Part shown: in pieces, positions 2,708 to 63,378 of the stretch
Numbering within the stretch: position 1 is the first letter of the stretch
How the letters are laid out: each line of letters begins with the position of its first letter
Assembly (NCBI GenBank): GCA_036630325.1
Contig: CP142731.1
Coordinates: 1,178,001 to 1,242,000, forward strand
DNA length: 64,000 bases
DNA from: Vairimorpha necatrix
Lineage: Eukaryota
Direction: 5' to 3'
Notes under the pieces: model-generated
The model's database searches: none
Seen by the model: the letters and a program-made list of their open reading frames with translations, nothing else
What the model was told of the DNA's origin: nothing
Program-made: the position numbers and the translations under genes

Positions 2708-2869
2708 GTATTCTCTTCCTCTTCCCAATAATGTTTTTTGGAGGGAAAATATTGTATATTTTCCCTCCGACAAACATAAAAGAAATTCATGCCCAGAAGG
2801 GTATGAAGGATAATAAAAAATATGGTTTAAAACATTCTTCTCGGTCTGTTGGGAAACCAACAGACCACA
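2643..2869 (+). repeat. 3' LTR of Gypsy element A (227 bp)
   Basis: Begins TGTCAAGG right after the PPT, ends CCACA, and is colinear with 60139-60364. Confidence 0.9.
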
Positions 2870-4285: not shown

Positions 4286-5773
4286 GCCTTAATTTAAATA
4301 AAAGGGCATCTATTAAAATTTTATGTCATTATTTGGACATTCATATGCCTCTCTTTGTGAGTAGAGATGATTAAAGTCTGCGTTTCTTGTCTTTTCTCAT
4401 CACTTTTATACTCTTTGATCTTCTATATTCTAAAGTGATTTTTTGAAGTTTTTTGAAGAACAAAAGATTGGATATACACCATAGCGAATGTTGATTGATC
4501 AAGCTTTCTTCGGTCCACTCCATGGTATTTGGCAACCACGCCAGACCATGTTAATATATAAGTGAAAACATTACATTCAAATCGCTACATCAGTAACTTT
4601 TCGTTAGTAAGAATATCATAATTTTTTAAGTTTTAAAATTTCACCTGTTTGAGATTATCAATTGAGGAGACCCGATTTTGATTATGAATATTTCTGTATT
4701 CTTTATGTCTAAAAATCGAAAATCTGGTCTATTGTATTTAATCTATAACTTTTATAATAAACGTGTTTACCCGTTTTGTTAGTATTTTTTTAATACTTCC
4801 TAAACAGATTGACTCTGGAGTTTCTTTGTCGGTTTCATATTGTATTCTTTGGGCAGTAACAGGCAAATGCACTTAAAGACTTCATTGTGTCTTCTAATGT
4901 AATCTGATCCTAATATTTTTTCGGATCTAGATGCCAGGCGTTCAACTGTTTTATGGGCTTCTCCACAATTTGGGCATTTCATTCCGTCTCCAAAGAACAT
5001 GTTTCTATCTTGCAAATAACAGATGGAAGCTTCCCGTATTGCTAATGGTTTTGTGTAAAAGCCATATTTCCGAGTCTATATAGAACGGCTTCGTCTTGAA
5101 CTTTTCATTACAACCTTTAATGTAAGGTTACTATTTTATCTTGTTGTACAGGCTTAGCTTTTGTGTTTTTTTTGAGCGTCTTCTTTAATATGTCCTCTTG
5201 TTTTAAATTATATTTGCACGTAAGGAAATATTTATAAACAAAATTTGTCACTTATCGTTTTTAGTACCTTCAAAATTGCTGCCTTTTTTCTGATTGTATT
5301 TTGCGTATTTTTAAAACTCTATATAAGGCTGTATAGCATTGCTTCGCTGCGGATTTTATTTTTTCCCATGAATCTTACCAGTTATTTCCTTGGCAGGTAT
5401 TAGCATTGTTTATTTGCTGTTGTAGGTGGGTTATGTTTTGTTTTAATTGCTGCCTGGTTGTGTCATCTGATTCGCTTAGAATTTCTGATTCAAAATTAAA
5501 TAACCCAATGTAGTAGTTTATAGTAAAAGTCCAAACTCTTTTATTCCTTTTTCGTGTTTTTCCGGATAGCTTTGTTCTTGCTAGCTTTACCACTCTGTTA
5601 TTTTATTCCTGGTTAATTCTTTCATTCGTTTCTTTCGTGGGTTTACTATAGCTATTTTAGTTATACCAAAGTACTTGTAAGCACTTGTTTTGTCTAATTT
5701 TACCATATTAGTAGTAATTAATAATCATTTGTTGCTGATTTCTTGAGATTGATCTCTAGGTTGACTGTCCGCT
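4286..5773 (-). mobile_element. Degenerate, 5'-truncated non-LTR retrotransposon of the restriction-like endonuclease type (R4/Dong-like)
   Basis: Minus-strand fragments: RT C-terminus (EINLKKS...YKYFGI), Zn-knuckle-like CPNCGE...YIRRHNEV, NRPD endonuclease motif, TYILTWSGVV; many stops and frameshifts. Candidate 13-bp TSD ATTTATAAATACA at 4273-4285 and 5774-5786. Confidence 0.8.
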
Positions 5774-6717
5774 ATTTATAAATACACAAAAAATTTACAA
5801 TGTTTTTTATACATATTGTGCTTACACGCTATAGCATTATCTTTTTAACTTTTCTAAACAGATTTAATCAACAATCATAACCAAATAATAAATATAACAA
5901 TGCAGATTTGAAGATTTCGACGAAAGAATTCTTAGATGCTTTGAAAAATAATTTTTTATATTATAATAATCTGAATTTTACAAATAAAAATCAAAATAAT
6001 ATTTTGTACTTTCCAATTAAACATTGTCGATATATGGATACTTATGTAATGTTTTACTTTTGAACAATTGTGGGAAGTATAGTAAATAAAGACACCAAAA
6101 CACACTAAAGCAGGCTAATATGCAGCAACATTGGAAAGAAATCAATCTACAATTCAAAAATCTAACAATTAAATATATCTTTCGTGAACAAAAGATATTT
6201 TAGAAAGAAAAAAAACTTGAGACATAGAATCCCTTATCAATAATTAAACAGGTCAAGTTTTAAACTGAATGATGTATTAATAAATTTGAACTATTTTTAA
6301 TTTTTTTCTTTTTTAAAAAATCAAAATTCTTTTTTTTGAAAATTTAATTTCTTAATATATTATGAAAATAAAAACAGATCATTAGATTTCTAAACATGCA
6401 AATTATAACAAGTTTGTTTTATAAGAGATAGTTTATTACATTACTATCTGAAGATTGGTGAATATAGAAATTGAATAATATGCAAAAAAATCGTAAAGCA
6501 ATTTATAATTGTTTGAATGATGCATCACATTAAAAACATATTAATTTATAAATAAAATTGTATTTATGCAAGTATAATGTCGTTATACAATGCATCATAA
6601 TAGAGTTATGTGAAAAATATAGTAACTCAGAAATTGTTCTCTAGAAAATAGCCACCCAACGTGTTGTAGCTTTATTTCGCTCAAAAAAGTTTTTAGAATT
6701 TTTGAAATCGCCCATAC

Positions 6718-23669: not shown

Positions 23670-24574
23670 GAGATGAAATAAAATGATTATGCGGGAAAAA
23701 AAACGAGTATTTATAGTTTTAGAAATGAGTTTGTTTGTCAAATAAACAAAATCATAAAAAGAAATATGCATGAATAAAGAAAAATATAATTTTATAAAAA
23801 TTTACATTTATTGAGTCATCACATTCATCTTATTAATTTGATCAGTCTTCATATCTTTTTATGTCTCTATTTCATTCATATTCATCTCTTTATGAGTAAT
23901 ATTTTGACTCTTTGTTTCTAATCATCACTTTCGAGATCTTCTTAAGATACTTTCAAGAGTCTTCTTGGATATACGCCTCGACGAATGTTGGTATAAAGAG
24001 CTTTTTTTGTGGATTTCATGGTATCGTACACTTTTTAAAATATAGTGTTAATTTTATTAAATTAAAAAAAAATGTTCATCTTTTTATGTCAGTATATTTG
24101 TATTAGTTTATTTTCTTAATTATTGCTATAAAATTTTTAAGAAACATTATAAGATCAGTATAGTTGTATAGTACTTTAGAGATCTATTAAATAATTTGAT
24201 TTAGTAGAAATTATAATCTTTATACTATTGAAATATATAAATAAATATCATTATATGTGCGAAACATTATTTTATATAAAACACTTAATAACTTTTTTTG
24301 AATTTAATGTATTAAAAAAATATAAAACTAATTTGGTACATAAACAGTATAAATAACAAAAATCCATCATATTATTAAAGATTTAAGATTAAAATCGATT
24401 ATCTTATTCTTCTCTAATGACAGAGTAAGAAAATAAAACTAAATTAGAAATATTATTCCATATTATAAAATAATATTTATTAAAGCAAATATAATTAAAT
24501 TTACATATAGCATATTATGTAACCTTGGTTTTTTAAAAAATGAAAGCAAGAAGTTTGAACTTTTTAAATGTTGT

Positions 24575-25780
24575 TAAAAAATGCCTGAACCTGGAGTTGT
24601 AACTAAAAAATACATTCGACCGCGAATACTATGCGTTAAAACCTTTATTTTTATATGAAAATGATAATAAAAAATGCCAAAGCAAGAAAACCTACTAAAT
24701 ATACATGTGGACTGCATATTACAATGCGTTTTAGAACCTTTATTTTTTTTTATGTTGTTAAAAAATGCCAGAACCTGGAAATATATCTAAATATAATTCG
24801 ACTGCAAATACTATGCGTTTTAAACCTTAATTTTTTTTATGTTGTTAAAAAATGCCAAAGCAAGAAAATCTTACTAAATTTACATATTTAAAAAATTGCC
24901 ACGGCAAGAAGTTATACCTAAAATTTTTATGTGGACTATGAATACAATGCAATCTCGTGCGGCTTTATTATTTTTAAAACGTTGTTTAAAAATGCCAAAG
25001 CAAGAAAACCTACTAAATTTACATGTGGACTGCATATTACAATGCGTTTTAGAACCTTTATTTTTTTTAAAAAGTTGTTTAAAAATGCCAAAGCAAGAAA
25101 ACCTATTAAATATACAAAGAACTATGAATACAATGCAATCTTGTAAATAAATATAATTTATTTGGGTATAATATTCGGCTTATTGATTACTTTTCACAAG
25201 ATACGCTTACAGTCTCATCTGGCAGTTCCAGGACTTCCTTCTGAGATTCACTCATTGGGCTCTCGAAGACCCCTTCCTGATCTGTATCAAGCCCATGTCT
25301 GGCTGACATAGTTAGGCATTCTAAAGTCATTTTAAGGACTCTTGACTGTATATATGCTTCCGTTCTGGGTTCTAAGCTGAGCACTTTGATATGCGTACGG
25401 TGAAAATTAGTTACTATTCCATCCCACGTCATCACATAAGGAATAATTTTCGGCTTGTATTTGTAGAGAGAAGCCACATGATTTGCGAGCAAGTCGTATT
25501 TATGTTTCTTTTCTGTTTCTACTGCAGTGAGTTGTTAAAACTTGTGATTCCAACTTCTACAACGATCACTTCTTTCCTCAACTTGTCTACAATTAGTATA
25601 TCAGGCTTGTTATACTTTATTTTAATACTTGAATGTATCCTACTGTCGACTCGTACAATGCAATCTTGTAAAGCTTTATTTTTTTTTTTGAAAAGTTGTT
25701 TAAAAGTGCCAAGGCAAGAAGTTTAAACTAAATGTACATTCGACTGCAAATACTATGCGTTTTATTACCTTTATTTTTAT
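24575..25780. repeat. Tandem array of ~8 units of ~90 bp, interrupted by a LINE fragment
   Basis: Units begin AAAAATGCC and contain GACTGCA/GACTATGA and TACAATGC/TACTATGC, at ~24577, 24670, 24760, 24848, 24891, 24988, 25081 and 25702. Confidence 0.85.
25148..25653 (-). mobile_element. 5'-truncated RLE-type non-LTR retrotransposon (endonuclease + 3' UTR)
   Basis: NKPDILIVDK..EVIVVEVGIT and KYDLLAN..IIPYVMTWDGIV. Perfect 19-bp TSD TACAATGCAATCTTGTAAA at 25129-25147 and 25654-25672. Confidence 0.9.
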
Positions 25781-26871: not shown

Positions 26872-27326
26872 GAATAAAAAAAATTTTAAAGAATTTAAAA
26901 ATTTATAAAGAAATTTATATTTATAAAGAATTTTATATTCATAATTTAAAAATTTATAAAGAATTTTTTATTCAAAATTTATAAAGAATTTTATATTGTT
27001 AATTTAAAAATTTATAAAGAATTTTTTATTCAAAATTTATTAAGAATTTTATATTCATAATTTAAAAATTTCTTCTATTATATACAAATTTGATATATTA
27101 AAGAAAAATCATATATAGAAACTATTTTTTAAAAATAGTTTCCAAATTTCTAACAAATCAATACATATAAAATATTTTACATACCAATATAAAATATTTA
27201 GTAAATATTTAACAAATTAGATATCTGTTTTGACGTCTTTGATTTGTAGACCAATGAATATTCATATTGGTTCCTGAATTTCATTTGTCAATTAAATATA
27301 TAAAAAAAACAATATACAACTTCTTA

Positions 27327-28331
27327 ATGGACAAAAATTCAGATAATTTGCTCAAACTTGGTGCAAATGCCAAACGCATTCTTGAAAATTATAAAGGCAT
27401 TCTCGCCGTAGACGAATCTCCAAATTCGATAGGCGAAAAATTCAAAAAATTTAATATTGAAAATACAGAAGAAAATAGAAAAAACTTCAGAGAACTTCTT
27501 TTCACTTCAGATCATCTTGAAAAATACATTGGTGGCGTCATTCTCAATGAAGAAACTTTTTCTCAAAAAACTAATAAAGACGAGTCATTGGTAGATATTT
27601 TATTAAATAAGAATATTGATGTCGGTATCAAATTAGATAAAGGATTACAAGATTTTGAAGATAATGAAAAGATTTCTGTTGGTTTAGAAGATTTAGAGAA
27701 TAGGATACAGAATCCTTTATTTGAAAAAGCTACTTTTGCTAAATGGAGGTCGCTATTTTTAGCCAGTAAAGATTTACCAACTATTAGTTGTATAGATGAG
27801 AATTGTCAAACATTAGCCAAATACGCTAGTATTTGTCAGAAATATGGGAAAGTACCAATAGTAGAACCAGAATTATATTTTAATGGGAATTATCATATTG
27901 ATGACGCCAAGAGACATACTAAGAGTATTTTAAGTCATTTATTGAGATATTTAAATGATGCAGATGTTTATATACCTGGAATTTTAATCAAGATGGGATA
28001 TGTTACACAAGGAACAGATTCAGAAGTTAAAAATTCTTATAATGAAATAGGTATGGCTACGTTAGAAGGGATGATAAGTACGATTCCTTGTGGAGTGCCA
28101 GGGATAGTCTTTTTATCTGGAGGACATACAGAAGAAGATGCTATTGGATATTTGAGATCAGTAAACAGTCTGCGGGCGTTTAAGACGTGGGATATTAGTT
28201 TTAGTTATGGGCGTACTTTGACAGATAGGCCTATGGAGATATGGAATGGTAAAGAGACTAATAAGATGAAAGCGCAGAGTACATTTATTGAGATAGCAGA
28301 GAAGTGTTATTTGGCCAATCAAGGGAAATAA
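27327..28331 (+). CDS. Fructose-bisphosphate aldolase, class I
   Basis: KGILAVDES, IGGVIL, GIKLDKG, FAKWR, VPIVEPE, PGIVFLSGG, SFSYGR. First ATG is at 27327. Confidence 0.95.
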   Translation: MDKNSDNLLKLGANAKRILENYKGILAVDESPNSIGEKFKKFNIENTEENRKNFRELLFTSDHLEKYIGGVILNEETFSQKTNKDESLVDILLNKNIDVGIKLDKGLQDFEDNEKISVGLEDLENRIQNPLFEKATFAKWRSLFLASKDLPTISCIDENCQTLAKYASICQKYGKVPIVEPELYFNGNYHIDDAKRHTKSILSHLLRYLNDADVYIPGILIKMGYVTQGTDSEVKNSYNEIGMATLEGMISTIPCGVPGIVFLSGGHTEEDAIGYLRSVNSLRAFKTWDISFSYGRTLTDRPMEIWNGKETNKMKAQSTFIEIAEKCYLANQGK

Positions 28332-35344: not shown

Positions 35345-36774
35345 ATGGTGTCTAATAAATAGTTATTTACATTTAAACTTGATACCATCATAATTTTAAT
35401 AAATTATGATATTTAGTATTAGAAAGTATAACCGACAAATAAACTCAATCCTATATCTATAATTGTGATATTTAGCATTTTAAAGTGTAACTGTCAAAAA
35501 TGAATCTTGTAATTTTAATATTGATGAAAAGGTCTAATCTTGTATTTTTAATTTAAACTTAGATCTGTAAAATATAAAAAAAATTAGAACTCTCGAGATA
35601 TAAAAATTAAAAGGGGGAATTGATATTTTTGACACCAAAAAAATATTGTAGAAATATTTTTTAGATTTGGGAATTTCATTAATCAATTAATATTTTCTAA
35701 TTAAAATGTGTTAATTAATACATATATAAAATATTGTAAACACAAAATATTTGATATATGTCAAAATACTTGAGATTTTTGAATTAAATACATTTTCTAT
35801 GTCCAGTGTAAACATTAACAAATATATTTATTCTCGTCATAAAAAAGAAAGAAAGATTGAAAGAATAAAATACAAACTTAAACCTGTAAATTAAAACCGA
35901 CAGTATACTCATGACTACTGTATACATAAGACATGTAAACATTAGTCATGAAGCGAATTTTTTCGTCACAGAAAAAAGAGTTCAAACTAGATACAAAATT
36001 CAAATGATTTTGTTTTGGAAGAAAAAATAATTCACAAATACAAGTTTAAAAAAACAATTGTCAGTATATTGGCATTTTACAGAGGTCATTATATTCATTA
36101 AGGGAGGTTTTTTAGCCATCCAAGAAACATTATTACAAACAACACGCTCTAGCATAAAAATCATCTATCAATTAAAATAATTGTTTTATGACATATGACT
36201 TCAATAAACAAAAGACATTGTTGATAATACACAAAATCAAAATCAAAAAAAATAATTCTCTCTTTATATTTCGTGTTGCAAGAAGCACTAAAAACCAAAT
36301 TTCTTGAAAAAAAGACAACTAAAAAGTAAACGTTATGCTACTTATTAAAACTTATTTGTTTAAATAAGAAATCCAAAAAAAAATAATACGAATTAAATTT
36401 TTTGAAATCGAACATTGTAAAAAAATTTTTTAAAATACAAAAAATAAACCAGAAACAGGCAAAGACCAGGAGACATAAAGATTTTTTTTCATGACAAAGA
36501 ACTTTGTGGAATACATAATTAAACCTATCAATTGAGGGTACAATAGTAAAGAACATATGTTTAGTGATTCGTTTGAAGATTGCTTAGTTTTTATTTTTTA
36601 TTAAAACTATGATCGATTATGGTTAAAAAAACTCTAATTTATAAAATAAAAATTTGTTCGAGAAATCAAGCGTGCTACGATATTACAAAAACAAAAAGAA
36701 ACCTTGAACAGAAGTCATCAAACTTGCTATGCTTTTTATTTACTTATATATTTGTACTCATCTTTTATAGAATG

Positions 36775-37561
36775 TTTTTTTTTCTTTGCAAGTAAGAGGT
36801 AGGGAGAACCCTTACATAATTACCCAAGGGATTTGGGTGTGATCCTCATCCAACTGGTACTGTGAGATTCTATCCATCCAAAACTCCCTCCATACACTTG
36901 CCGGTGCAGCAAGCTCCTCCGTATCCATTGGACTTTAGCACCGGGAGAACACTTTTTATTTATGCCTCAATTGCGTCCAGAGTGACCTCACAGCGGATAT
37001 ACTTAACGGGCATGGTTATCTATAACCCGAGGAGAGACATCATCGTACTGACTCAAAGGTCCCTACAATCATCTGTATTGCACACACGGCTCCTTACACG
37101 ACCACATCACCAACCGGTCATTTTTATTGGGCTGCGTTGACCACCATTTACCCACTATGTTCGGCCACCGTGTTAAAGAATTTTGTAAGATAGGGTCCAC
37201 GAGATCTTCTATTGCCCTACCTCGTCTAGTCTCTTAGTTAGCTCCTAAATCCCACTCTATAGTGCACCAGCCATGGGCTTTAACTAGGTCGTACCTATTA
37301 GATACTTTTATGTATCATTAAATCACCACAAAGGGAATACTTTTTTGGCTTTGAGGTGCGTTTCTGCACTAGATGCCAATTCCCTTATGGCTGGACACAC
37401 AAATTCCATTGAATCAACTTAATGATTATCGTGGACATTTTCATCATCTGAGTTGTTCCAACTGCATCATAGAAAGTAGAAACAATTTTGGTGCTCTTGG
37501 GAATCGAACCCAGTCAATGCTCAATGGAAGAATTGCCTTCTACCACTGGGCCAAGGGCACC
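36775..37561 (-). mobile_element. tRNA-headed SINE-like element, copy 1 (~790 nt)
   Basis: Minus strand: A-box TGGCCCAGTGG, B-box GGTTCGATTCC, A tail. TSD TTTTATAGAAT at 36763-36773 and 37562-37572. Colinear with 49126-49931. Confidence 0.9.
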
Positions 37562-39198
37562 TTTTATAGAATATTCCTGTCGTTCTAAACGCTACATGAA
37601 CGCTTTAGCTCGATGTTTCTGTCTTCGTCAGCACTCTTAAAGCGGCATTTTAAGAAAAGATCCAAAATTTATGTCTTGGTCGTAATGTCTCTAAGAACAT
37701 TTTTCTATGCCAATCGACCTATTGATAAATTTTTTATATAAAACCACTAAAACTATTAAGGTGCCGTTATACAAGCATGTATCATGTTTTTAAGATCTAC
37801 TTATAATTAAAGAGAAAATTAATTTTTTTTTTGTTAGTTTGATCTTATTTATTTTAATTTTTTAGATTTTGCAAATAATATTATCTACTGTATCGACTTG
37901 AAAAACTACTTTTGCTATAATTACAATATAAAAGTGCTTAACGAGTTTTTTGTACTCCGTTATCCAGACTTATTTGTTTCGCCCAATTTCAACTAACAGA
38001 GATAAAAAATTTAAATTATTTTTTTATCAAATTGGCTTCACCGAAAAATAGTTATTCTAATCGTCAAAATAAAGTAAAAAAATACATCCTTGATATTGTA
38101 ATTTCTGTTTCACAAAATCTATATTTTACTTATTGCTTTAGAAAATATAACAATCAAAAAAAGGTTGTAATTTGCAAATTTTTTCTAAAAAACAAAGTTA
38201 ATCTCGCAATGTTTGAACTATTTCGTTGTCTAGAGCAGCTAGATCATTTTTTTATGAAAATATTTAGAATATGATGAACAAAGGATACCGATATCATTTG
38301 AAATTTAATACAAAAAATTTCATTTGGTTTCTATATTTTGAATAAAATATGTTTTTTCCACATCAATCTGCAAAATTTTAGAAATTTCATATAAGTAATT
38401 TTTTAAAAATAGTAGTCAATAATATAAATTAAATGCAATATTATTAAAATTTATCGTTTTTATAATTTACTTATCAACCGATCTGATATGCTAAGAGAAG
38501 CTTATATTTAAAATCAAAAAATTTTCTATTGGTATTTAATTCGAAGTTGTTTTTGCAATTGGTTTAGTAGTAAGTAATTCAAATAATCGAAAACATTCAT
38601 AAAACCCAGCTTTCAGTTTATATATGTTAAATTATAGAGTTTGCAAACAAATTAAACGGAATCGCATAGCATGTTATGGGTTTTTGATTGAGAATTTGGC
38701 ATCAAAAATATTCTTTCTTTTATATTATTTTGTTTCATATAAATAGACAATCTTTTTTCTCATTTTCACTATTAGAATAGTTACTTAATGTTGTGTGTGT
38801 CAAACGTGAACGTAAAGTGCTACACACGTCAAATATATCATGTCAGATTTTGATATCTTTGACATATTTTATTTAAAATTCAAATAACAAACACAGTCGT
38901 GTTTTTTCATCAAAGATTTTCTATATTTTTTGGTTTATCCAAATCAGTACAATATTCTAACTTACGATAAATGTTCCACATGACTTTAGAGACAAAATTT
39001 TGCCTAAGTTTTGTGAGCGTAATAGAGAATGCTGTATTTTTCTATTATAAAGTCTATAAAGCTATATATGTGTAGCCTTGTATAAAAATTGACATAATAC
39101 AACGATTTTGGCTGTTTTGAACATGATCAAAAAATTACAGTTTTTAATTTATTTTTACTTGTCATTAAAACGATAGAAGAATTTCAATAAAATAATAT

Positions 39199-39723
39199 TT
39201 ATTCTCTTGTGAATAAAACACTTAATCCTATAAGACTCAATACAGTGAATTTTACAGCAGGTATGGTATTTATCCAAATGGTCATCATACCGAAATAGGG
39301 AATATAAGCAGCAACACAAGATTTCACATCTTGTGGGGCCAAGTAATATTGATTAGGCCTATATAAGCCGACATCATCAAGTCTATTATTGTCACCCTTA
39401 GTAAGAGTTCGTGTACCAAATTTCTTAATACAACGATGAACTATAGGAATCGTATTTTTGTATAATTGAAATACGGTCATGTCTCCTACACCATAAGATT
39501 TTGGCCTTAGCCATAAAATATCTCCTCTCTCAAACCCAGGACTCATGCTCTCACTAAGCACTACGACTATAGGACTGTCATTATTTAGAATGAGAGAAAA
39601 CAATTTCCACATCATATAAGTTCCAATGATTGAATAACTAGCATTTACAAATTGTTTAAGCATTTGTCTAGGTCCCATTCTAGTAAACGCTGCGACATCC
39701 TTTGTACTGAAGAGTAAATCCAT
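39199..39723 (-). CDS. SEC11: Signal peptidase complex catalytic subunit Sec11, copy 1
   Basis: SPIVVVLSESMSPGFERGD, IPIVHR, TKGDNN..DD. CCCC precedes the ATG at 39723. Confidence 0.93.
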   Translation of the reverse strand: MDLLFSTKDVAAFTRMGPRQMLKQFVNASYSIIGTYMMWKLFSLILNNDSPIVVVLSESMSPGFERGDILWLRPKSYGVGDMTVFQLYKNTIPIVHRCIKKFGTRTLTKGDNNRLDDVGLYRPNQYYLAPQDVKSCVAAYIPYFGMMTIWINTIPAVKFTVLSLIGLSVLFTRE

Positions 39724-40352
39724 GAAGGGGTAAAAAAGGAACAAAATAAAAAACGAGAGACAGATAAAATTATGTATGTGTTTCAAACAATAAAAAACAT
39801 CATCTATACAAATTAAAATCAAAGATGTTTTCTTTATCAATATCACATATTATAAAATTATCCTCAGATAATTTTATATTTTGACAATTAAGCCCAAATT
39901 TATAACTTGTTTGTATAATGAATTTAGTTATTTAATTTTTTTTTGTTTAATCGTAGCAAAAAGGTCGGTCAAAAAACATTTAAGTAGTTTAAAATAATAT
40001 TCAGATAAAGTCATATTTTACATCTAAATAATGTATTCAGTACAGTTGATTAAGATAAAACTCTTTTTTTAGCATTTGTCAAACCAAAATCGTCATGTTA
40101 CATTTTGCTAGATTTTTATTTAAAAATAAATTTTTAAATGTACAGTTTACGTCTTTAAATATAATATAATTTGTCTAATGTTTAGTATTAAAAACTCAAT
40201 ATGGTCCTCTTTAATAAGTAAAGCGTCTCTAATACTTGTTTAAAAGAAAAGGTTTTTTTGAAGCACTATTTGTCATATTGTATGCTGATAACATTAATGT
40301 TACCAGAAGGAGAGCTGGTTATTGAAGAAGGCTTTTTATTAGAAGAAGAACT

Positions 40353-41370
40353 GGCTAAAGTGCGCTATAGGAATATTTTTTGAACTAGGGTTTTTTTGTT
40401 TTTTTTTGCCCCTTTTTTTGAAAAAATGGAGGAAGGAAGATGGAGAGGAAGAAAGAAAATTAACAAGTAGAATAAAAGTTTTAATAAAGCAGCAAAGACT
40501 GAAGTAGAAGAATTTCTTTGAAGCATATACCTAAACAGATATAGTTTTGCACTATTGGCTGATCTGTTTCTATTAGGTATAGAATTTTTTAGAGAACGCC
40601 AATTACCTTCTATGGTATTGTTATGGACTCCCGTGATTGGGTCTCTAAAGTGTAATGTATGGTTAACCATATGGTGTTGGCTAAATAAAGTACCTAAAGA
40701 ATTATAGGCTCTCGCATATCACTATGTATGATACTTTTTGTGCTTACATATTTTAATAAAAGTGCTGTTAGAGTTTCTTTATCCCTTTTTTATGTGTACT
40801 AGTATTATTTTACGTTCCAATGTACGTTCGGTCATTCCAAAACACCAAAATCCTTTCACTAGCTTGCCTCGGTGGTTTTTATTTTTTCCTATCTTCGTCT
40901 CATCAATTTCTACTATTATGTCCTCTCCTCCAATAATGGTCATTGATGACAAATACTTATCGTAAATGTTCATTTCTTTTAGTTTTTTTAATACTGTAGA
41001 TATAGTTTTTTTCGAACAATGTAAAATTTGACAAATATACTTACTGGGATACCCAAGAATCCACAGATTAAGTATTTGTAATGTTAGTAAATGACAAAGT
41101 TTAGAATTACTAAAGAAAGTGTCATTCCAAATAGAAATTGTCTTTCGACATCCCTTCCAAGTACAAGTTAATAAATACTCCTTCTTACTTACTTTACGTA
41201 TTTTACCTCCACATTGATCACAAATATTTATTGTTTTTTCTCTTATCAGTTCATTATATATAAATTCTAATTCTTCCTCTCCATCTTCCTTCCTCCATTT
41301 TTTCAAAAAAAGGGGCAAAAAAAAACAAAAAACCCTAGTTCAAAAAATATTCCTATAGTGCACTTTAGCC
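40353..41370 (-). mobile_element. Merlin (IS1595/ISXO2-like) DNA transposon 1, frameshifted transposase, ~100-bp TIRs
   Basis: Near-perfect TIRs GGCTAAAGTG... at 40353-40453 and 41271-41370. Transposase CxxC..C, IGG...VEIDETK, HSD, VNH, HNNTIEGNW with at least three frameshifts. No TSD visible. Confidence 0.9.
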
Positions 41371-44742: not shown

Positions 44743-46730
44743 AGAATGAAGTAGAGTATATAAGCACTCCGCTGCGGATATTTAACAAAATTTTGCCCCG
44801 GCCATCGGACTTTTATTGCATATACCATACTAATAGTGGCAAAACGACGTTTTAGTAGCATCTTCTCACATTAATAGCGCTTGTACATATAATAATATTC
44901 AAATAAATAATCCATAATTATAAAAAACGAATTTTTTGAGGATTCTGGTATAGATAATGAAAAAATTGTTATAACTAGGATAGGGAATTTATTAATAAAA
45001 TGGAAATTAATTAAGTTGGTTTTGAATTCGATAGGCACTTTAAATATTACCATGACGCAATATGATCATTGTTGTATAATAGATGTATCTTAAGTACTGC
45101 TATTTCCTTAATAATAACCAAAAATTAACACTAAGATTATTTTTCAAAGCATTAAACCTTAAAATTAAAAGTTACTTGTGGCAATTTTAGAGTCACAGTG
45201 TGAATTTTGAAGGACCCTGTTACTAAGTGATCAAAAGCAATATGTTGATTCGTAAATGAGTGTTTAGATTTACACAATATAATATTTTTTTCTGATTACT
45301 GTGATTGATATCTTGACAAATGAAATCATGCACGGGAAATTTTTCAGTTGATTCATGAATCTTATGTGATGTACAGACATTAGAGGATTTATTTTAGCTG
45401 ATAAACTTAACGGGTCGGAAATAATGCTAATGCTACTTAAATGTACGTATAGTACTATAATAGAAAAAACAATGATTAAACTTGAATGAGAATCTAAAGG
45501 CTTATTATGGACCTTCCAAACGAAGCAGGACGGCTCTATACTTAATTATAAATAATGATGTAATTTTTTTTTATTGTTATATGGGAGCCAAGTGGTCAAA
45601 GCAACCTATGCAATCCTGGGAGATTATTGAAGCAATATGAAGAGAAATGTGTGAGATGCAGACGAAAGTCGGGGCTTTCGTGTTTGTATGACGACGTCCC
45701 TCTTTGTGTTATTCGAACTGTGCTCTTTAGTCATATTCGCTATAAATCATTAACGCGATATGACCATAGAAGGTTGAGATTCTACTGGAGCCAATGTCCA
45801 ATTTATACAAAGTTGATTACCACATAATGGGTTATATTGTGGCGTTTTTGGAGATAATAATCTTACAGCAATAGTGGAATATAAGTACTGTCATATGTCC
45901 ATCTTGTCCTTTATGAGTGATTCTTTAATTTCTTACTTATGAAAAAAATGTATCGACAAACCCTTTTGAGGGTTTTTTTACGAAGGACGATAGTTCAGAA
46001 CTTTTGGTACAAACATTTTGAAATTTATTCTAAAACCAGATGTTTTGTTTGGTGCGCAATTATGATTATTTTTTACGACTACCCATTAATTTTAATGTAC
46101 TTGTTTGGCTATCATTTTGTTTTTTGACATTTTTTTGTTTAAGTATAAATGGGAAAACAATCTTTTAATTTTGATATTGTCAAAACAGTTATTACAGATC
46201 ATAATTTTATTAAAACAATTTTTTTTTATTTTTTTAACATAAAAACTCTGTAGCATCAACAGAAGTCATTATTTATAGTTTAAGCTTGTTTATTCGAAAT
46301 CTCGAATAATTAGAGAGCAAATTAGAGGTTGACCGTAAAAACTACTAAGATAAACTTAATTTCGTCGATTTGAAAATCGCTTTAAGGCATACTTTGCAGC
46401 TTATTTAATATGATATCCATGGTATTTTAAGTATTTAAATTTGAATTTTCAAATTAAAGATCAATATATAAAAAGCTAAAGCAATGTCTGTTCAACTTTA
46501 TAAAGTACAAAACAAAAAATATAAAATTTTAAAATTATTCTTAACAGTTTTTTATGTTAAAAGTCAAATTTGGTGGAGCTATTTTTGATTTTGTTATGTA
46601 AAAATTTTTTTTCGCAACCTACAATTCATTTTGTTTATATGAAGGTCAAGCAAACTTTTATTTTTCATATATATAACCGCTATGTCTGCTTAAGGTTAAT
46701 AAATGTTAATTTAATTGGTATTTTTTTATT

Positions 46731-47255
46731 TTATTCTCTCGTAAATAAAACACTTAAGCCTATAATACTTGACATAATATATTTTAAAGCGGGTATTGTA
46801 CTAGCCCATATGGACATCATACCAAAATACGGAACAAAAGCAACAACACAGGATTTCACGTCTTCTGGGGCCAAGTAATACTGATTAGGCCTATACAGCC
46901 CCACATCATCAACTAAATTATTATCTCCTTTTGTAAGAGTTCGTGTCCCAATTTTTTTTATACAACGATGAACTATAGGTATTGCGTTTTTGTACAACTG
47001 AAATACAGTTATGTCTCCTACACCATGGGTTTTTTTTCTTAGCCATATAATATCCCCTCTTTCAAACCCCGGACTCATACTTTCACTAATTACAACGGCA
47101 ATATGATAATCATTATTTAGTATAAGAGACAACAATTTGAAAATCATATAATATCCAATGACTGAATAGCTAGCATTTACAAATTGTTTAAGCATTTGTC
47201 TTGGTCCCATTCTAGTGAATGCTCTGATATCTTTTGTACTGAAAGGTAAATCCAT
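46731..47255 (-). CDS. SEC11: Signal peptidase subunit Sec11, copy 2
   Basis: 174 aa, colinear with copy 1. SESM, IVHR and GDNN..DD are retained; CCCC precedes the ATG. Confidence 0.92.
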   Translation of the reverse strand: MDLPFSTKDIRAFTRMGPRQMLKQFVNASYSVIGYYMIFKLLSLILNNDYHIAVVISESMSPGFERGDIIWLRKKTHGVGDITVFQLYKNAIPIVHRCIKKIGTRTLTKGDNNLVDDVGLYRPNQYYLAPEDVKSCVVAFVPYFGMMSIWASTIPALKYIMSSIIGLSVLFTRE

Positions 47256-47604
47256 TAAGGGGTATTGAGTGTACTAATTAATATATAGGAGGAAAAAATA
47301 AAAACTATCCACAAAAGATATTAAATTAACCTTTAAATATGGAAAATTAAAACGATTTGAAGCATTAAATATGTATTTTTTTACATGTATTAAAATTGCT
47401 GTCAAATAATTTCTAATTTCCAACCCACTGTCAAATATATCAGAGACTTGACACCGAACAAAAATTGTGGATGGTGTATTTATCTTCTTTATTCTAAATT
47501 TTAAAAGAAAACGCCTTCTTTTACAAAAAGCATAACACTAAAAGAACCAACTACAATATCAAACGATCCTTCTTAAGACTAGCGCGTAACACATAATATA
47601 TTAA

Positions 47605-47815
47605 AAAATACTTTACTGGGGTATAATATAATAACTTACTTACTAATTACTTTTCACAAGCTATATTTACAATTTCTTCTGACAGTTTCCGGAGTTCCTC
47701 CTGAAATCCACATATTGGGTCCTCGAATACACCTTCATGTTCAGTATCAAGCCCATGTCTGATTGACATATTTAGGCTTTCTAAAGTCATTTTAAGGACT
47801 CTTGTCTGTATATAT
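47605..47815 (-). mobile_element. Short 3'-end fragment of the RLE non-LTR family seen at 25148
   Basis: Shares CTTTTCACAAG, GTATCAAGCCCATGTCT and TCTAAAGTCATTTTAAGGACTCTTG with 25190-25355. Confidence 0.85.
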
Positions 47816-48295
47816 AAAATATACAATGCACTTATTTATATTAAATTCTGTCGTTTCTTCTTAGTTTTATCTTAAGATTAACTGTCTTTATTTTATTGTG
47901 CACTATTTAAATTTATTCTATTGATGACAATCACCTCGTTTAGTGTCTGTTTTTTAAATCAAGTTTCTCTGAGAAACTTGCCTATGATATTTTATTAGTG
48001 TTTTTTATGGGTTTAATTTTTAAATTTTATATTGGGCATTTTAAGCCTAATTGTCGATATATGTTGTAGAGCGAGAAGCGGGTTTGCATCAGAATTGTCT
48101 TAAATCTTTTTTATATAGATTCCACAGCTTTTTTGACATTTTAGCATAAATTGCAACTTTTTCCGATCCAGAATATTTATAGTAAACTTATCATTGTTTG
48201 TTGAATGCGAGGAGCAAGGTTGTTTACAAAACATCATATTCTTCATTGTTATTCAGTAACCAGCACAATTTTTTTTTATTTTGTATAGGAATAAT

Positions 48296-48854: not shown

Positions 48855-49125
48855 AAAAAAATGTTATTCATTTTTGAATTAAGAAAAGGACGGATCGTAG
48901 CAAACAACTCCAATTAGAAGGTCTATACTTTGTTTTAAACAAAATAAAGTAAATGCAAAAAAGAACAAGAAGGAGACAAAAATATCGATCGTTTCTAATA
49001 TAAAATTACAAAATTAATAAAAATATATTCAAAAGTAAATTTAAATTCTTTTATATTATAATAATAATTATATTGCATTTTAAAATTTTTTGATAAGAGT
49101 TTATACATATGCTTTAATTTTTAGA

Positions 49126-49931
49126 GGTGCCCTTGGCCGAGTGGTCGAAGGGATGTTCTCATTGACCAATGGGCTGGGTTCGAGTCCCAGGGGCACCAAA
49201 TTGTTTCTACTTTCTATGATGCAGTTGGAACAACTCAGATGATGAAAATGTCCACGGTAATCATTAAGTTGATTCAATGAAACTTGTGTGTGTCCAGCCA
49301 CAAGGGGATTAGCATCTAGTGTAGAAACGCACCTCAAGGCCAAAAAGCAGTATCGCCCTTTGGTGACTTAATGATACATAAAAGTATCTAATGGGTACGG
49401 CCTAGTTGGAGCCCATGGCTGGTGCACTCTAGAGTGGGATCCTAGAGCTAACTAAGAGACTAGACGAAGTAGGGCAATAGAAGGTCTCGTGGACCCTATC
49501 CTACATGATTCTGTAACACGGTGGCCGAAACTAGTGGGAGACTGGTGGTCAACGCAGTCCAATAAAAATGCCGGGCTGGGGACGTGGTCGTGTAAGGAGC
49601 CGTGTGTGCAATACAGACGATTGTAGGGACCTTTGAGTAAGTACGATGATGTCTCTCCTCGGGTTATAGATAACCATGCCCGTTAAGTATATCCGCTGTG
49701 AGGTCACTCTGGACGCGATTTGAGGTATAAATGGAAAGTGTTCTCCTGGAGCCAAAGTCCAATGGATACGGCGGAGCTTGCTGCACCGGCAAGTTATACG
49801 GAGGGAGTTTTAGTGAGTAAGAATCTCACAGTACCAGTTGGAAAAGGATCACACCCAAATCCCTCTGGTCCCTATGTAAGGTTTCTCCCTACCTCTTACT
49901 TGCAAAGAAAAAAAAAAAAAAAAAAAAAAAA
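49126..49931 (+). mobile_element. tRNA-headed SINE-like element, copy 2
   Basis: A-box TGGCCGAGTGG, B-box GGTTCGAGTCC, acceptor stem GGTGCCC/GGGCACC, A24 tail at 49908-49931. TSD TTTAATTTTTA at 49113-49123 and 49932-49942. Confidence 0.92.
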
Positions 49932-50880
49932 TTTAATTTTTATATAGAAGAATTATTTCAAAAATCTTCTTCCATAATGACTTGTCTGTTAAAAATATAA
50001 ATCTGGCCAGATAGAAAGTAATAAGCATATACTCTACATTCTAAAATCGAATGTATAATAAAATGAGATTTGACATACAAATCAGGTCGATTTGGATAAA
50101 GATATATTTGAATGTAAAAAAATAGTTTATAATTTAATTCTCTATAAATATTCTATTTGGTATGATTAATATTAAAAGATGTAGGTAATTTGACTCCTCT
50201 TGCTCATCCCTTTTAGCACTTCATTTGTGAAGTTATAAAAATAGAATAAATGTCCTTTGAGTTATAATGTTTAAGCATCTTCGATCGATCAATTAAGTAC
50301 TTCTTAAAGGATGTACTTTTTTACTTAATAAATTATAAATAATTGATATCTTAAAATATACTTTTATAATCCTAAAAATAAATAACGTTAAATACAAAAA
50401 TTAGATTTGATTACTAAATATGTCCACAAAGAATATTATATACGTTGCAAATGTTGAACGTTTAATGATAAGTACATGATTTACTTTAGAGAAATTTGAT
50501 ATTTATATTTTGTTATATTGCATTTAGACAATTTTAGGCATCCTTAAATACAGCAATCTTGGTTTGAAAGTTTACTCTTGTAAATTTGACTTGAGATTGG
50601 ATTTAATTGACACATATCGAGAAACCTAATATTTATATTTTTTAGAAAACATACAATAAGATTACATAAACACTAAATATAAAATTTCTATAAATAAAAC
50701 ACCTGTTTGCATTTTTTTAGTTGATTTTTTTTGACATGCAAAAAAAAAAATATATCCATAACTTTATTTTGAATTGAATCATAATTCACCAAAAAATTTT
50801 TAGTGTATGTTTTTATTAAGTTTTTTTGTGATTTGTTTATATTATTTTTCATCTTTAAAAAAACATTTTGTTTAGGTCAT

Positions 50881-57974: not shown

Positions 57975-58948
57975 GGTTAAAGGGCCCACTTTGGTCAAAA
58001 AAATGGTATAAATATTTTTTTTTAAAAAAAGACCCTTTTTTGGAAAGTCAAAACGGCAAAAAAGGAAGAAAAAATAAATTTAATAATATTCGTAAATAAA
58101 TCACCTTCAAAGTTCCTTCTTAACATATATCTTATCAACGATTTAGTAATCAATGTTCTGGTTCTGTGTCTTGCCGAAGTCTCATTTTTTAATCCACTCC
58201 AATTTCCTTCAATTGTGTTAGTATGACATCTATTGGAATTATTTACAAACTCCAATGAATGATTAACAGTTTTGTGTTCAGCAAAATAGTTTTTTTTCTT
58301 AAAATAAAACTTGAAGCAGTAACTGTGCATAATTGATTCAAAGTGAACATAATTTTTAATTATTTCTTCTAGTGTTTTGGCTTTCCTATCGTTGACTGGA
58401 ATCATAACTATCTTTCTTTGAACGGTTCTTTCAACCATCCCCAAAACCCATACACCTTCAACCCGATGTCCTCTGTGGTATTTTACTTTACCAAATTTGC
58501 TTTCATCTTTTTCTATTATTCCTGGTCCACCGATTTTACCAGTTCGTTCGTATACTTTATTTTCAATTGTAGAAATTGTTTTTTATGATATGTCGAATAC
58601 ATCTTTTACCAATATCAAGAAATTCTCCTATAGCAGTCTGGTTAACCTTACAAGACCATAATTTTATTATTAACAAAACATCTAAAATATTTGTTATTTT
58701 GTAATAAAATGGAGAGTCTTTTAATAATGACACTTTCCTCCGACATGCTTTCCAAACACATTTAGTCATTAATTTATTTTTATTACTTACTTTACAGTAA
58801 GCATCGCATTTTGGACACTTTACAGTCTTATTTTGAATTGCTGATGTAAAGATGTTCAAGAGTTCTTCCATTCGACTTTTCATTTTTGGGGTAAAAAAAA
58901 CAAATTCGCTTAAATACCATTTTTTTGACCAAAGTGGCCCCCTGCTCC
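57975..58948 (-). mobile_element. Merlin DNA transposon 2, inactivated transposase
   Basis: ~35-bp TIRs (CCACTTTGGTCAAAAAAATGGTAT), 9-bp TSD GGGTCATTG at 57966-57974 and 58949-58957. Transposase from ATG 58883 with a frameshift near 58580; IGGPG..DESKFG, VNHS, HTNTIEGNW; the HSD Asp is replaced by Tyr. Confidence 0.92.
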
Positions 58949-60138: not shown

Positions 60139-60364
60139 TGTCAAGGGACAGATCTCCAGTGGTCCTAAGATTGCCCTGGAGACCAGAGAATACCATACTA
60201 TAGGTATTCTTCTTCTTCTCTCCAATTATGTTTTGGAGGGAAATACTTTATTTTCCCTCCCACAAACATAAAAGAAAATCATACCCAGAAGGGTATGAAG
60301 AAGTTAAATAAAACATTAAGTAAAACTAACTCTTCTCGGACTGCTGGGCAACCAGTAGTCCACA
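60139..60364 (+). repeat. 5' LTR of Gypsy element B (226 bp)
   Basis: TGTCAAGG...CCACA, homologous to 2643-2869. Confidence 0.9.
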
Positions 60365-63300
60365 ATGGTGGTAACGGTGAAGAGGATATGAAAGATGAAA
60401 TCGATGAAATCTGTTCCTATGTGAAAAAACTGAGTCTACAAAACAGATGGACAGAATTTACCGGCGAAGATCTAAGTAAAGCCGAAGACTTTCTCTCCCA
60501 GTTTAGAGAAGTAGAAGATATCTATGAGCAAGCCAAGACGCTGGATATCGTAAAGTCCAAACTAAAAGGAAAAGCGTTGCGATGGTATAAGGCCTTCGAA
60601 GGTGAGGAGATAACAGATTTCGATACATTCAAATCCCAATTTCATAAGAAATACATAAAAGAAAAACTACTTGAAGATGTAACTGATAAGTTTATGCACT
60701 TGTACGTACAAGGTCCAAAGGAAAGCGATATCATGAGTTACGCTTACGACCTCAAGAGTTGTGCAAAGAAAAGCACTGAATACTTTAACCGATCAAAGAT
60801 TGCGATAGGAAGAAACTCCCCAGATACGTTGAAGGAATCTATATTAGACACCAAGGACTGGATAGAGTTATTAGATCTGGTAGAAGAAAAGGAAACTTTT
60901 ATGAATAATTATCTAAAAAAGAAAACCAAGTGGCCCAAAATTCCACGTAACGAAGCACCCTTGCAGGAAAAGAAAGTGATTAAAACTTTCACAAAGAAGG
61001 CAGAAGAAGGAAATACTGCATTACTCCTGAAGGTAGGAAGAGTGGATAAATCGAAAACTAAAGACATGCGACCAAGAATTAAACTATATTCCGAAAAAGA
61101 AATTATTTCCGCACTAATCGACACAGGTGCCCAAATTAACCTGATTAGTAAAAACACTATCCAACGCCTGGGCCTAGAAACAACAAATGTCAGTCTAAAC
61201 ATTGAAGGAGTAGGAGGAAGTGTAAGATCAGAAAAAAAGGTGGAATTCATGATTAAAAAACCTAAAAACAAGAAGAGCAACAGAGTGGAGGCTTATGTAG
61301 TTGAGAACTTGCCAGAAGACCTCATTATAGGTATTGGAGATGCCGTTTCACTAAACTTGTTAAAGATGCTTAATAAAATGGAAAGCGCTGTTATAACGAA
61401 ATCAGTATGTACAACAACGTCAGTTAATAATGAAACACTTATAACTGATGTCGGAGATGAAACATTACTACAAGTTGAAAAAGAAAAGTTCAATAAACTT
61501 ATTACGGAGTATTCAGAAATTTTTTTAAATGGAGATCAACAATCAAGTCTAGACATTGAACATGCTATAGAAATAACAAATGACGTCTCTGAAATAAAAA
61601 ATATTCAATATAGAAGGTCTCCGGACCAAAATATGATCATAGAAGAAAAAGTTCAGGAGTTTTTGAAGAAAGGAGTTATCGAAAGCAGCGATTCAGATTA
61701 TACATCCCCAGTTGTATTAGTCAAGAAACCGGACGGCGATCTAAGATTTTGCATTGATTATAGGAGACTGAACAAAATCACTAAGAAAATGATTTACCCC
61801 ATACCTCTTATAGAAGAAACTATTGAAGAGCTACAAGGAGCGTCTATATTTACTGTATTAGATTTAGAATCGGGATATCATCAAATAAGAATCCGACAAA
61901 AAGATAGATATCTTACATCTTTTAGAAGCAGATCAGGGACTTTTCAGTGGGTTAGGATGCCATTCGGGCTTGTAAATGCGCCCTTTACTTTCCAAAAGAT
62001 AATGAATTCAATACTATCTCCTCATTTACATAAATTTGTACAAGTATACTTAGATGATATAATGATATATTCAAGATCGGTTAAAGAACATCTAGAACAC
62101 ACGGAAGCAGTGTTTAAAATATTAGACAAATTAAAACTGAAAGTCAATCAAAAAAAATGCAAGATTGCTAAAAATTCAGTAAAATTCTTAGGTTATATGA
62201 TAAACAAAGATGGAATAAGCATACCATTAGAACAACAAACCAAATGTTTACGACTTAAAGTTCCGAAAACTCTCAAAGAAACTAGGGCCTTTATCGGATT
62301 TATTAATTACTTTAGGAAATTTATAAAAAACTACACAGATATAATGGCCCCGATTTATGAATGCTTGAAAAAAGGAAAATTTGAGTTTTCTGAAAGCGCT
62401 AAACAAAGTGTAACCAAAATAAAAGAGATTATCACGAGCTCTCCAGTCCTTAAACTACCAGATTTTAACAGAAAGTTTATTTTATATACAGATGCATCTA
62501 ATTTATACATAGGAGCAACACTAATGCAGGAATACGAGGGAATAGAAATGCCAGTATATTTTATATCAAGGAAATTAAATACGGCAGAAATCAACTATAC
62601 AGTAACCGAAAAAGAGTGTCTTGCTATAATATGGAGCATAACACAATTCAGAATATATCTTACAAATACATTTATAATCCGTACAGACCACCAAGCGCTT
62701 AAATGGCTACTGAGTTTTAAAGAGAGTACAGGGAGATTAATGAGATGGATTCTAACTTTAGAAAATTACTCTTACGAAATTGAGTATATTAAAGGAAAAG
62801 ATAATGTAATTGCAGATGGATTAACCAGATTTGTCCATACAGTAAATAAGGACCAGGCTGATGAACTATCCGTTTCAGAAAAAAAAGAACTTATTCTAAA
62901 GTGTCACGAAGAATGTGGGCATGGGAGTATATTTCCAACATACACGCTAATCCTCCAGAAAGCGCAATGGAAAGGTATTTACGCAGATATAAGAAAAGAA
63001 ATAGAAAATTGCCAAGTATGTCTGAAATTTAATCCTAAAAGAATACCCAAAGAGTATCATAGGATTCAACTGAAAGAACCATTTTCTCTAGTTGGTATCG
63101 ACATAGTAGGCCCATTGCCTAAGTCAGAAAATGGAAAGATTTATATAATTGTAGCTACCGATTACATTACTAGATGGTGTGAAGCTAAGGCCGTGAAGAA
63201 TAAAACAGCCAAAACAGTAGCCAAATTTATTTTTGAAGAGATCATATGCAGACATGGTCCACCGAACGAACTACTTTCAGATAGGGGACTCGAATTTTTG

Positions 63301-63378
63301 AACTCTACAGTAAAAGAATTATGTAGAATTTTTGGATCTAGTTTGTTATACGCCCTATCCGGGCGTATAACAAACTAG
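60295..63378 (+). CDS. Gag-Pol polyprotein (single ORF), truncated within integrase
   Basis: Gag-like KLKGKALRWY, protease LIDTGA, RT YLDD, RNase H, integrase HHCC and first two Asp. The final GSSLLYALSGRITN* is read from the inserted Merlin end. Alternative start at 60388. Confidence 0.9.
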   Translation: MKKLNKTLSKTNSSRTAGQPVVHNGGNGEEDMKDEIDEICSYVKKLSLQNRWTEFTGEDLSKAEDFLSQFREVEDIYEQAKTLDIVKSKLKGKALRWYKAFEGEEITDFDTFKSQFHKKYIKEKLLEDVTDKFMHLYVQGPKESDIMSYAYDLKSCAKKSTEYFNRSKIAIGRNSPDTLKESILDTKDWIELLDLVEEKETFMNNYLKKKTKWPKIPRNEAPLQEKKVIKTFTKKAEEGNTALLLKVGRVDKSKTKDMRPRIKLYSEKEIISALIDTGAQINLISKNTIQRLGLETTNVSLNIEGVGGSVRSEKKVEFMIKKPKNKKSNRVEAYVVENLPEDLIIGIGDAVSLNLLKMLNKMESAVITKSVCTTTSVNNETLITDVGDETLLQVEKEKFNKLITEYSEIFLNGDQQSSLDIEHAIEITNDVSEIKNIQYRRSPDQNMIIEEKVQEFLKKGVIESSDSDYTSPVVLVKKPDGDLRFCIDYRRLNKITKKMIYPIPLIEETIEELQGASIFTVLDLESGYHQIRIRQKDRYLTSFRSRSGTFQWVRMPFGLVNAPFTFQKIMNSILSPHLHKFVQVYLDDIMIYSRSVKEHLEHTEAVFKILDKLKLKVNQKKCKIAKNSVKFLGYMINKDGISIPLEQQTKCLRLKVPKTLKETRAFIGFINYFRKFIKNYTDIMAPIYECLKKGKFEFSESAKQSVTKIKEIITSSPVLKLPDFNRKFILYTDASNLYIGATLMQEYEGIEMPVYFISRKLNTAEINYTVTEKECLAIIWSITQFRIYLTNTFIIRTDHQALKWLLSFKESTGRLMRWILTLENYSYEIEYIKGKDNVIADGLTRFVHTVNKDQADELSVSEKKELILKCHEECGHGSIFPTYTLILQKAQWKGIYADIRKEIENCQVCLKFNPKRIPKEYHRIQLKEPFSLVGIDIVGPLPKSENGKIYIIVATDYITRWCEAKAVKNKTAKTVAKFIFEEIICRHGPPNELLSDRGLEFLNSTVKELCRIFGSSLLYALSGRITN
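60366..60379 (+). promoter_or_regulatory. Primer-binding site, probably tRNA-Leu
   Basis: TGGTGGTAACGGTG lies 1 nt after the LTR and resembles the complement of the eukaryotic tRNA-Leu 3' end (TGGTGGCAGCGGTG). Confidence 0.7.

Follow-up and report, generated by a model that had tools for sequence, protein, structure and literature searches.

Large SINE-like elements have been described in fungi, namely mgsr1 of Magnaporthe grisea (800 bp), Egr1 (700 bp) and EGH24 (900 bp) of Erysiphe/Blumeria graminis and Foxy of Fusarium oxysporum, and the copy numbers quoted for such elements in the consulted section of the source lie between 40 and 160 (PMC5063351). For the microsporidian Nosema bombycis, Table 2 of PMC3614468 gives a SINE value of 0.18% and assigns 14% of the genome to 'unknown' repeats, and the accessible portion of PMC11585130 gives zero SINEs for Microsporidia sp. 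MB. In the available text of PMC13702014, SINEs are mentioned in the methods and in a legend; in that of PMC4202319, a protein-based survey of microsporidian transposable elements, the word SINE is absent, and the elements described include Ty3/gypsy elements with a single polyprotein and Merlin-type DDE transposases. A literature search covering repeat-class tables for Microsporidia, with Dfam, Repbase, SINEBase and supplementary files lying outside it, revealed no characterised SINE family, and three motifs of the element presented here were found in no paper when full texts were searched.

The element was analysed in a window of 64 kb, a term used here for the whole stretch of DNA. It very probably represents an ordinary family of tRNA-derived SINEs, i.e. 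non-autonomous non-LTR retrotransposons of the RNA polymerase III (Pol III) type, for which we infer transcription by Pol III, spreading by a LINE partner and selection on the source copies. As in the tRNA-SINEs (SINE2/tRNA class, with poly(A) and mobilised by LINEs via target-primed reverse transcription), a 5' head with promoter boxes, a non-coding body, a poly(A) tail, target site duplications (TSDs) of 11-12 bp that vary in sequence, dispersed truncated copies and subfamily variants are found. The differences from the usual tRNA-SINEs concern the length (~785 nt here vs 100-600 nt), a body without recognisable origin and the microsporidian host. The size limit customary for tRNA-SINEs (below about 600 nt) is exceeded, and in the other SINE features tested the element agrees with the class.

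A preliminary description of this locus had called the element unusually long, which is right in comparison with animal SINEs but not in comparison with the SINE-like elements of 700-900 bp described for fungi (PMC5063351), and the length consequently has a precedent in the wider fungal lineage. The element is of the same size class and of the same kind as mgsr1, Egr1, EGH24 and Foxy, as far as a comparison by description only can tell, whereas its abundance, with hundreds of contigs in one sequencing run, sets it apart from the 40-160 copies quoted for those fungal elements. Unlike the R2 element (RF00524), which inserts site-specifically in 28S rDNA, its copies sit in AT-rich intergenic DNA.

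Anatomy of the copies

Three copies of the element, designated A, B and C, are present in the window, all of them within the repeat-rich and gene-poor region between 36 and 50 kb (Table 1). The locus had been reported to hold two copies, each with A and B boxes, an A tail and its own TSD of 11 bp. For copies A and B this anatomy was recovered at the positions given in Table 1, but the TSD of copy B can be read as 11 or 12 bp and the number of copies in the window has to be raised to three. Without its tail, copy A measures 782 nt, and two extra bases (GA) separate its left TSD from the head. The 5' ends of copies A and B lie at most 2 nt from the first base of the head. When the flanks of the two copies were compared, they proved to be unrelated, indicating that A and B are separate insertions. 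Neither target site begins with an A run, and base pairing of the primer end with the poly(A) tail, known from L1, would not take place here, which is a point against the LINE-driven scheme proposed below.

Copies A and B are 89.2% identical over 795 columns by blastn, and our own column count yielded 94 differences in 783 columns. The GC content of the body (46.6% in copy A) contrasts with the 22-24% measured in the flanks, in agreement with the earlier statement that the body is far richer in GC than its surroundings.

Table 1. Positions of the SINE copies and of the other mobile elements in the 64-kb window.
Feature	Position	Strand	Basis or remark
Copy A, whole	49126-49931	+	
Copy A, left TSD TTTAATTTTTA	49113-49123	+	11-mer repeated after the A tail
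Copy A, tRNA-like head, 73 nt	49126-49198	+	ARAGORN, box pattern
Copy A, A box TGGCCGAGTGG	49134-49144	+	
Copy A, B box GGTTCGAGTCC	49177-49187	+	
Copy A, non-coding body, 709 nt, 46.6% GC	49199-49907	+	no conserved ORF, no Rfam family
Copy A, poly(A) tail, A24	49908-49931	+	read directly
Copy A, right TSD TTTAATTTTTA	49932-49942	+	read directly
Copy B, whole	37561-36775	-	
Copy B, 5' TSD ATTCTATAAAA	37562-37572	-	twelfth base, G, ambiguous with the first G of the head
Copy B, tRNA-like head, intact A and B boxes	37489-37561	-	ARAGORN, Rfam tRNA 26.8 bits, box pattern
Copy B, body	36784-37488	-	alignment; the one local hairpin of high stability is at 37323-37391
Copy B, poly(A) tail, A9, then one C	36775-36783	-	
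Copy B, 3' TSD ATTCTATAAAAG	36762-36773	-	
Copy C, decayed full-length copy (degenerate head, body, A7 tail)	45212-45948 (about)	+	blastn, alignment
Two Ty3/gypsy elements, single gag-protease-RT-RNaseH-integrase polyprotein	2-2707, 60169-63378	+	72-76% DNA identity
Merlin-type DDE_Tnp_IS1595 fragment	58022-58582	-	

The tRNA-like heads

The head of copy A was identified by ARAGORN as tRNA-Met(CAT) and that of copy B as tRNA-Trp(CCA). The pattern AGTGG-N20-45-GGTTCGANNCC, which is based on the A-box/B-box consensus, matched twice in the 64 kb, at the two heads, and not once in 100 shuffled sequences. Both heads fold better than their shuffled counterparts (z = -4.27 for A and -2.45 for B), and both remain under the gathering score of the Rfam tRNA family (29), copy B reaching 26.8 bits. 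The heads are tRNA-derived promoters and not working tRNAs. Of the 74 head columns, 20 differ between A and B, most of them in the interval separating the two boxes, compared with 74 of 709 columns in the body (Fisher P = 2e-4). At the border between head and body (49198), 10 and 12 contigs from two of the public runs analysed below (X1 and X2, respectively) diverge into different tRNA-like sequence.

Coding content and T runs

No ORF is conserved between copies A and B, the longest sense ORF encodes 81 aa, and a six-frame Pfam scan of the element, with stops read as X, produced no match (best E 0.14); the body is accordingly as devoid of a conserved sense ORF as first described. An antisense ORF of 86 aa covering the conserved core had no relative among 5.8 billion proteins. 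The single internal T4 mentioned in the preliminary description was found again in the body, which contains no T5 or longer run and 5-7 runs of four or more A, against a genome value of 14 runs of T4 or longer per kb. Base composition accounts for most of this shortage of T runs (shuffle P 0.31 and 0.19).

An old third copy

Copy C first appeared as a weak, collinear hit (E = 2.9e-4) at 45648-45808 when copy A was compared with the window by blastn. The global alignment of copy C with copy A had a score of 288.5, against 44 ± 9 in 200 shuffles (z = 26.5), and a maximum of 63 was reached when copy A was aligned with 21 other stretches of the window. The two copies are identical at 463 of 716 positions (~65%) and share the same 3' end (…CTTACTT…); no TSD could be recognised when the region around copy C was read. 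The body of copy C has a GC content of 33%, versus 47% in A and 44% in B, and T runs of seven and nine bases occur in this copy. At the sites where A and B agree, 160 of the 296 G/C positions are changed to A/T in copy C, and 73 of the 346 A/T positions to G/C. Together with the GC content, these base changes indicate that inserted copies decay towards the 23% GC of the genome, while a high GC content was retained in the sources from which the young copies came.

Size and composition of the family

The region 48950-50100 was compared with the contigs of four public runs, X1, X2, X3 and X19, the last being an RNA run from another organism. Contigs lying on the element numbered 450 in X1, 272 in X2, 21 in X3 and 5 in X19. 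In X1, the summed contig depth, which is not a copy number, amounted to 46 in the left flank, to 768-6,162 over the head and to 7,396-335,394 over the body, where it climbed towards the 3' end. Many contig joints skip internal parts of the element, and several sequence variants are each common to many contigs. The family is large and includes 5'-truncated, internally deleted and head-variable members, a pattern that LINE-type target-primed reverse transcription should give. In the right flank of copy A (49964-50041), a summed X1 depth of 1,900-6,700 was recorded, against the 46 of the left flank, and copy A may have been inserted in or beside another repeat.

The idea that the element spreads as a SINE is supported by its 5' tRNA-like head with boxes, its poly(A) tail, the TSDs that differ between A and B, the presence of three copies within 64 kb and the hundreds of contigs in public runs. 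The copies might instead be processed pseudogenes of one cellular lncRNA gene with a tRNA head, or products of Pol II read-through, which would make them something other than a self-propagating SINE family. Such a retro-copy origin would be compatible with a body whose source is not recognised, and with a Pol III transcription that we deduce from the anatomy. It does not agree with the hundreds of contigs on the element or with several variants each present in many contigs, nor with copies that differ greatly in age (identity of about 89% between A and B, about 65% for C) and whose 5' ends coincide with the promoter-bearing head. The many variants, the differing ages and the 5' ends at the head point to a family with several successive source copies, and we consider a retro-copy origin extremely improbable.

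Words of the body are present in 20 of the 24 runs listed (18 studies), mostly in small shares; among these runs are metagenomes of bat-gut, bovine, freshwater, rhizosphere and root origin. The X19 contigs consist of short or diverged pieces of the element and are silent on expression, starts, ends and strand; within the 3' half of the body, some of their segments of 47-54 nt differ from the element at 0-2 positions. Exact-motif scans of metagenome, viral and genome contig collections returned 0 loci, and the body had no blastn match in phage and plasmid collections.

Origin of the body

tRNA-SINEs are usually built from a tRNA head and the 3' part of the partner LINE. For SINEs, derivation of the 3' part from the partner non-LTR element is the usual case in the part of PMC7245038 consulted here. 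Following this usual build, the body would be the 3' part of the partner LINE (its UTR, possibly together with the end of ORF2) fused to the tRNA head, and its conserved blocks would be the sequence recognised by the reverse transcriptase and not a module in its own right. In favour of such an origin, conservation is strongest in the 3' half, and the X1 depth steps up from 133,825 to 335,394 in the last 40-60 nt of the element, as might be expected of a tail shared with another abundant element; no such step is visible at the tail in run X2. Against it, no trace of a reverse transcriptase or of another Pfam domain was detected in the six frames, and the element is inserted at scattered places in AT-rich DNA, unlike the site-specific R2. 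A low-scoring hit of the R2 3' UTR model in the tail of copy A (21.5 bits, E = 0.046) would also be in favour, but this value is far under the gathering score of 38, and the match is absent from copy B at E values up to 10. Derivation of the body from a LINE is a tentative proposal, which we hold to be possible and on the whole rather unlikely.

The R2 3' UTR (RF00524) was also considered as a candidate identity for the last 106 nt of copy A and was rejected as a chance match, its 21.5 bits falling below 38, its E value being valid only for a search of 851 nt and no counterpart being present in copy B.

A scan of the 26 ORFs in the window that reach at least 150 aa revealed no LINE-type domain. 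The assertion that the 3' end of the element does not match the LINE tails of the window thus loses its object: no LINE is detectable there and there are no tails to compare.

Folding of the body

The body had been proposed to be a large folded functional Pol III RNA (an RNP scaffold, a ribosome-binding element or a ribozyme) spreading as a SINE. A search against the covariance models of Rfam gave no family at its gathering score in the whole window, ribozymes included, and when E values served as the cut-off for copies A and B, every hit obtained was sub-threshold. The folding energy of the whole element is close to that of shuffled sequences, with z = -1.45 for the sense strand and an equally good -1.68 for the antisense strand (20 shuffles each). 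In windows of 120 nt, z reached -2.2 only in the window holding the head, and the body windows lay between -1.7 and +1.7; the best-conserved stretch (49606-49765) folds worse than its shuffled versions (z = +1.2 to +1.7). Windows of 70 nt led to a mean z of +0.14 in the body of copy A (n = 64; minimum -1.94, none below -2) and of -0.15 in that of copy B (n = 63), where one window reached -4.38 and the other 62 stayed at or above -2.25.

The differences between the bodies of A and B are clustered between long invariant blocks, as had been noticed: the longest stretch free of differences measures 77 nt (P = 0.009), and the dispersion is significant (P = 0.008). This clustering is compatible with a folded RNA, as are the conservation and the GC richness of the body in the source copies and the presence, in the RNA library of another organism, of 3'-half segments of 47-54 nt that carry 0-2 differences. 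The most favourable region is the stem-loop at 37323-37391 in copy B, homologous to 49297-49365 in copy A, which is very stable in B (z = -4.33). It holds the pair AAGGGGAT/ATCGCCCTT versus AAGGGAAT/ATTCCCTT, which, with the indel correctly aligned, is a true two-sided change from G-C to A-U accompanied by the loss of a bulge. Two wobble-preserving changes lie in the same stem-loop. In copy A, however, its z value is 0.10, and at sites 49304 and 49307 the letters of copy B account for only 2.7-15% of the depth of the public contigs, suggesting that the strong hairpin of copy B is a minority variant and not a feature of the family. The variant table of the run contigs contains no linkage between sites and is unfit for covariation analysis.

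The helices named in the preliminary description do exist, but two of them (H1 and H5) share 3 nt and are mutually exclusive, and only one of the proposed pairings presents a true two-sided change. Four of the helices are invariant, one shows a change from G-C to G-U and one from U-G to C-G, and one lacks its terminal pair in copy B, in line with the caution, expressed at the outset, that some changes break pairs. With the two young copies, RNAalifold found 1 compensatory pair among 204 predicted pairs. In a simulation in which 69 substitutions (42 transitions and 27 transversions) were placed randomly in the body of copy A 2000 times, at least one compensatory pair was obtained in 42% of the cases in a helix of at least 8 bp and in 65% in a helix of at least 7 bp, so that the pair-preserving changes are at the level expected by chance. 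SINE copies drift neutrally after insertion, and a comparison between copies is for this reason a weak test of RNA structure in principle. Copy C was set aside as evidence on structure, given its identity of about 65% and its drift towards AT.

By the tests run here, a specially folded body is not supported. With no Rfam family, energies close to those of shuffled sequences and pair changes at chance level, we regard a large folded functional RNA as very unlikely.

Other features of the window

The class I aldolase encoded at 27258-28331 has its closest proteins at 63-72% identity, and its best named relatives are those of Nosema granulosis (57%) and of three Encephalitozoon species (53%), followed by further microsporidia; these relatives indicate that the host is a microsporidian. 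A comparison of the aldolase with a protein atlas yielded only clusters labelled as bacterial and was left out of this taxonomic assignment. The housekeeping genes in the window are intron-less. The Ty3/gypsy and Merlin-type genes of Table 1 match the description of microsporidian transposable elements in the available part of PMC4202319.

Several further repeats were observed. A repeat of about 190 nt occurs at 25166-25357 and 47625-47817; its two copies are 81% identical, exceed 40% GC and extend from GGGTATAATAT to CTGTATATAT. It has no match in Rfam and could represent a solo LTR or some other kind of small non-autonomous element. Just upstream of the copy at 25166, a loose array of 60-95-nt repeats with the core AAAAATGCC(A/T)(A/G)A(G/A)C… occupies 24551-25116. 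Inverted repeats of about 73-110 nt, 89-95% complementary, at 40353-40461 and 41263-41370 bracket an ORF on the minus strand (40779-41339) with a weak HTH match, and the whole looks like a small DNA transposon or a relic of one. Two related ORFs of 216 and 180 aa, at 39198-39849 and 46730-47273 (both on the minus strand), share 82% DNA identity over 300 nt and belong to no clear Pfam family; they are situated in the repeat-rich, gene-poor region (36-50 kb) of the three SINE copies.

Discussion

The anatomy of the copies and the composition of the family are compatible with the following scheme for an ordinary tRNA-derived SINE. Pol III would start just upstream of the tRNA-like head by means of the internal A and B boxes, would read through the body of about 710 nt, which is almost without T runs, and through the encoded A tail, and would stop at a T run in the AT-rich flank. 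The endonuclease and the reverse transcriptase of a LINE, encoded outside the window, would then nick an AT-rich target and copy the RNA from its poly(A) end, generating the TSDs of 11-12 bp and many 5'-truncated copies. The body would be a module specific to the family, possibly taken from the 3' region of the partner LINE, and the source copies would keep it GC-rich and conserved while the inserted copies decay towards AT.

The clustering of the differences and the retention of GC suggest that part of the divergence between copies A and B arose in source copies under constraint. The boxes would be subject to this constraint, as would blocks of the body, chiefly in the 3' half, which is the part of the body best kept in copy C and in the contigs of another organism. 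It could reflect recognition by the partner reverse transcriptase or simply the avoidance of Pol III terminators, and not necessarily folding.

Pieces of the 3' half recur nearly unchanged in the RNA library of another organism, and they are also present in gut, freshwater and root metagenomes. The conserved 3' half (~49450-49800) might be a new SINE central domain that occurs in several microsporidian species and may have passed between them and their hosts. It would be kept GC-rich against the strong AT mutation bias as an RNA element specifically recognised by the partner reverse transcriptase or by some other RNP. We judge this to be improbable; should it be true, the element would define a SINE superfamily that is the first to be characterised in Microsporidia and that includes a functional RNA module.

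As an ordinary tRNA-derived SINE, the element needs no new mechanism. Its heads are reported as tRNA genes by a standard finder, and a large family of this kind can inflate the tRNA gene counts of an assembly. GC-rich copies in DNA of 23% GC also constitute convenient insertion markers for strain typing and dating. Microsporidian genomes are models of genome reduction, and some are full of mobile elements; surveys based on proteins (PMC4202319) would miss a SINE of high copy number, and a SINE family may hide among the 'unknown' repeats of these genomes, such as the 14% given for Nosema bombycis in Table 2 of PMC3614468.
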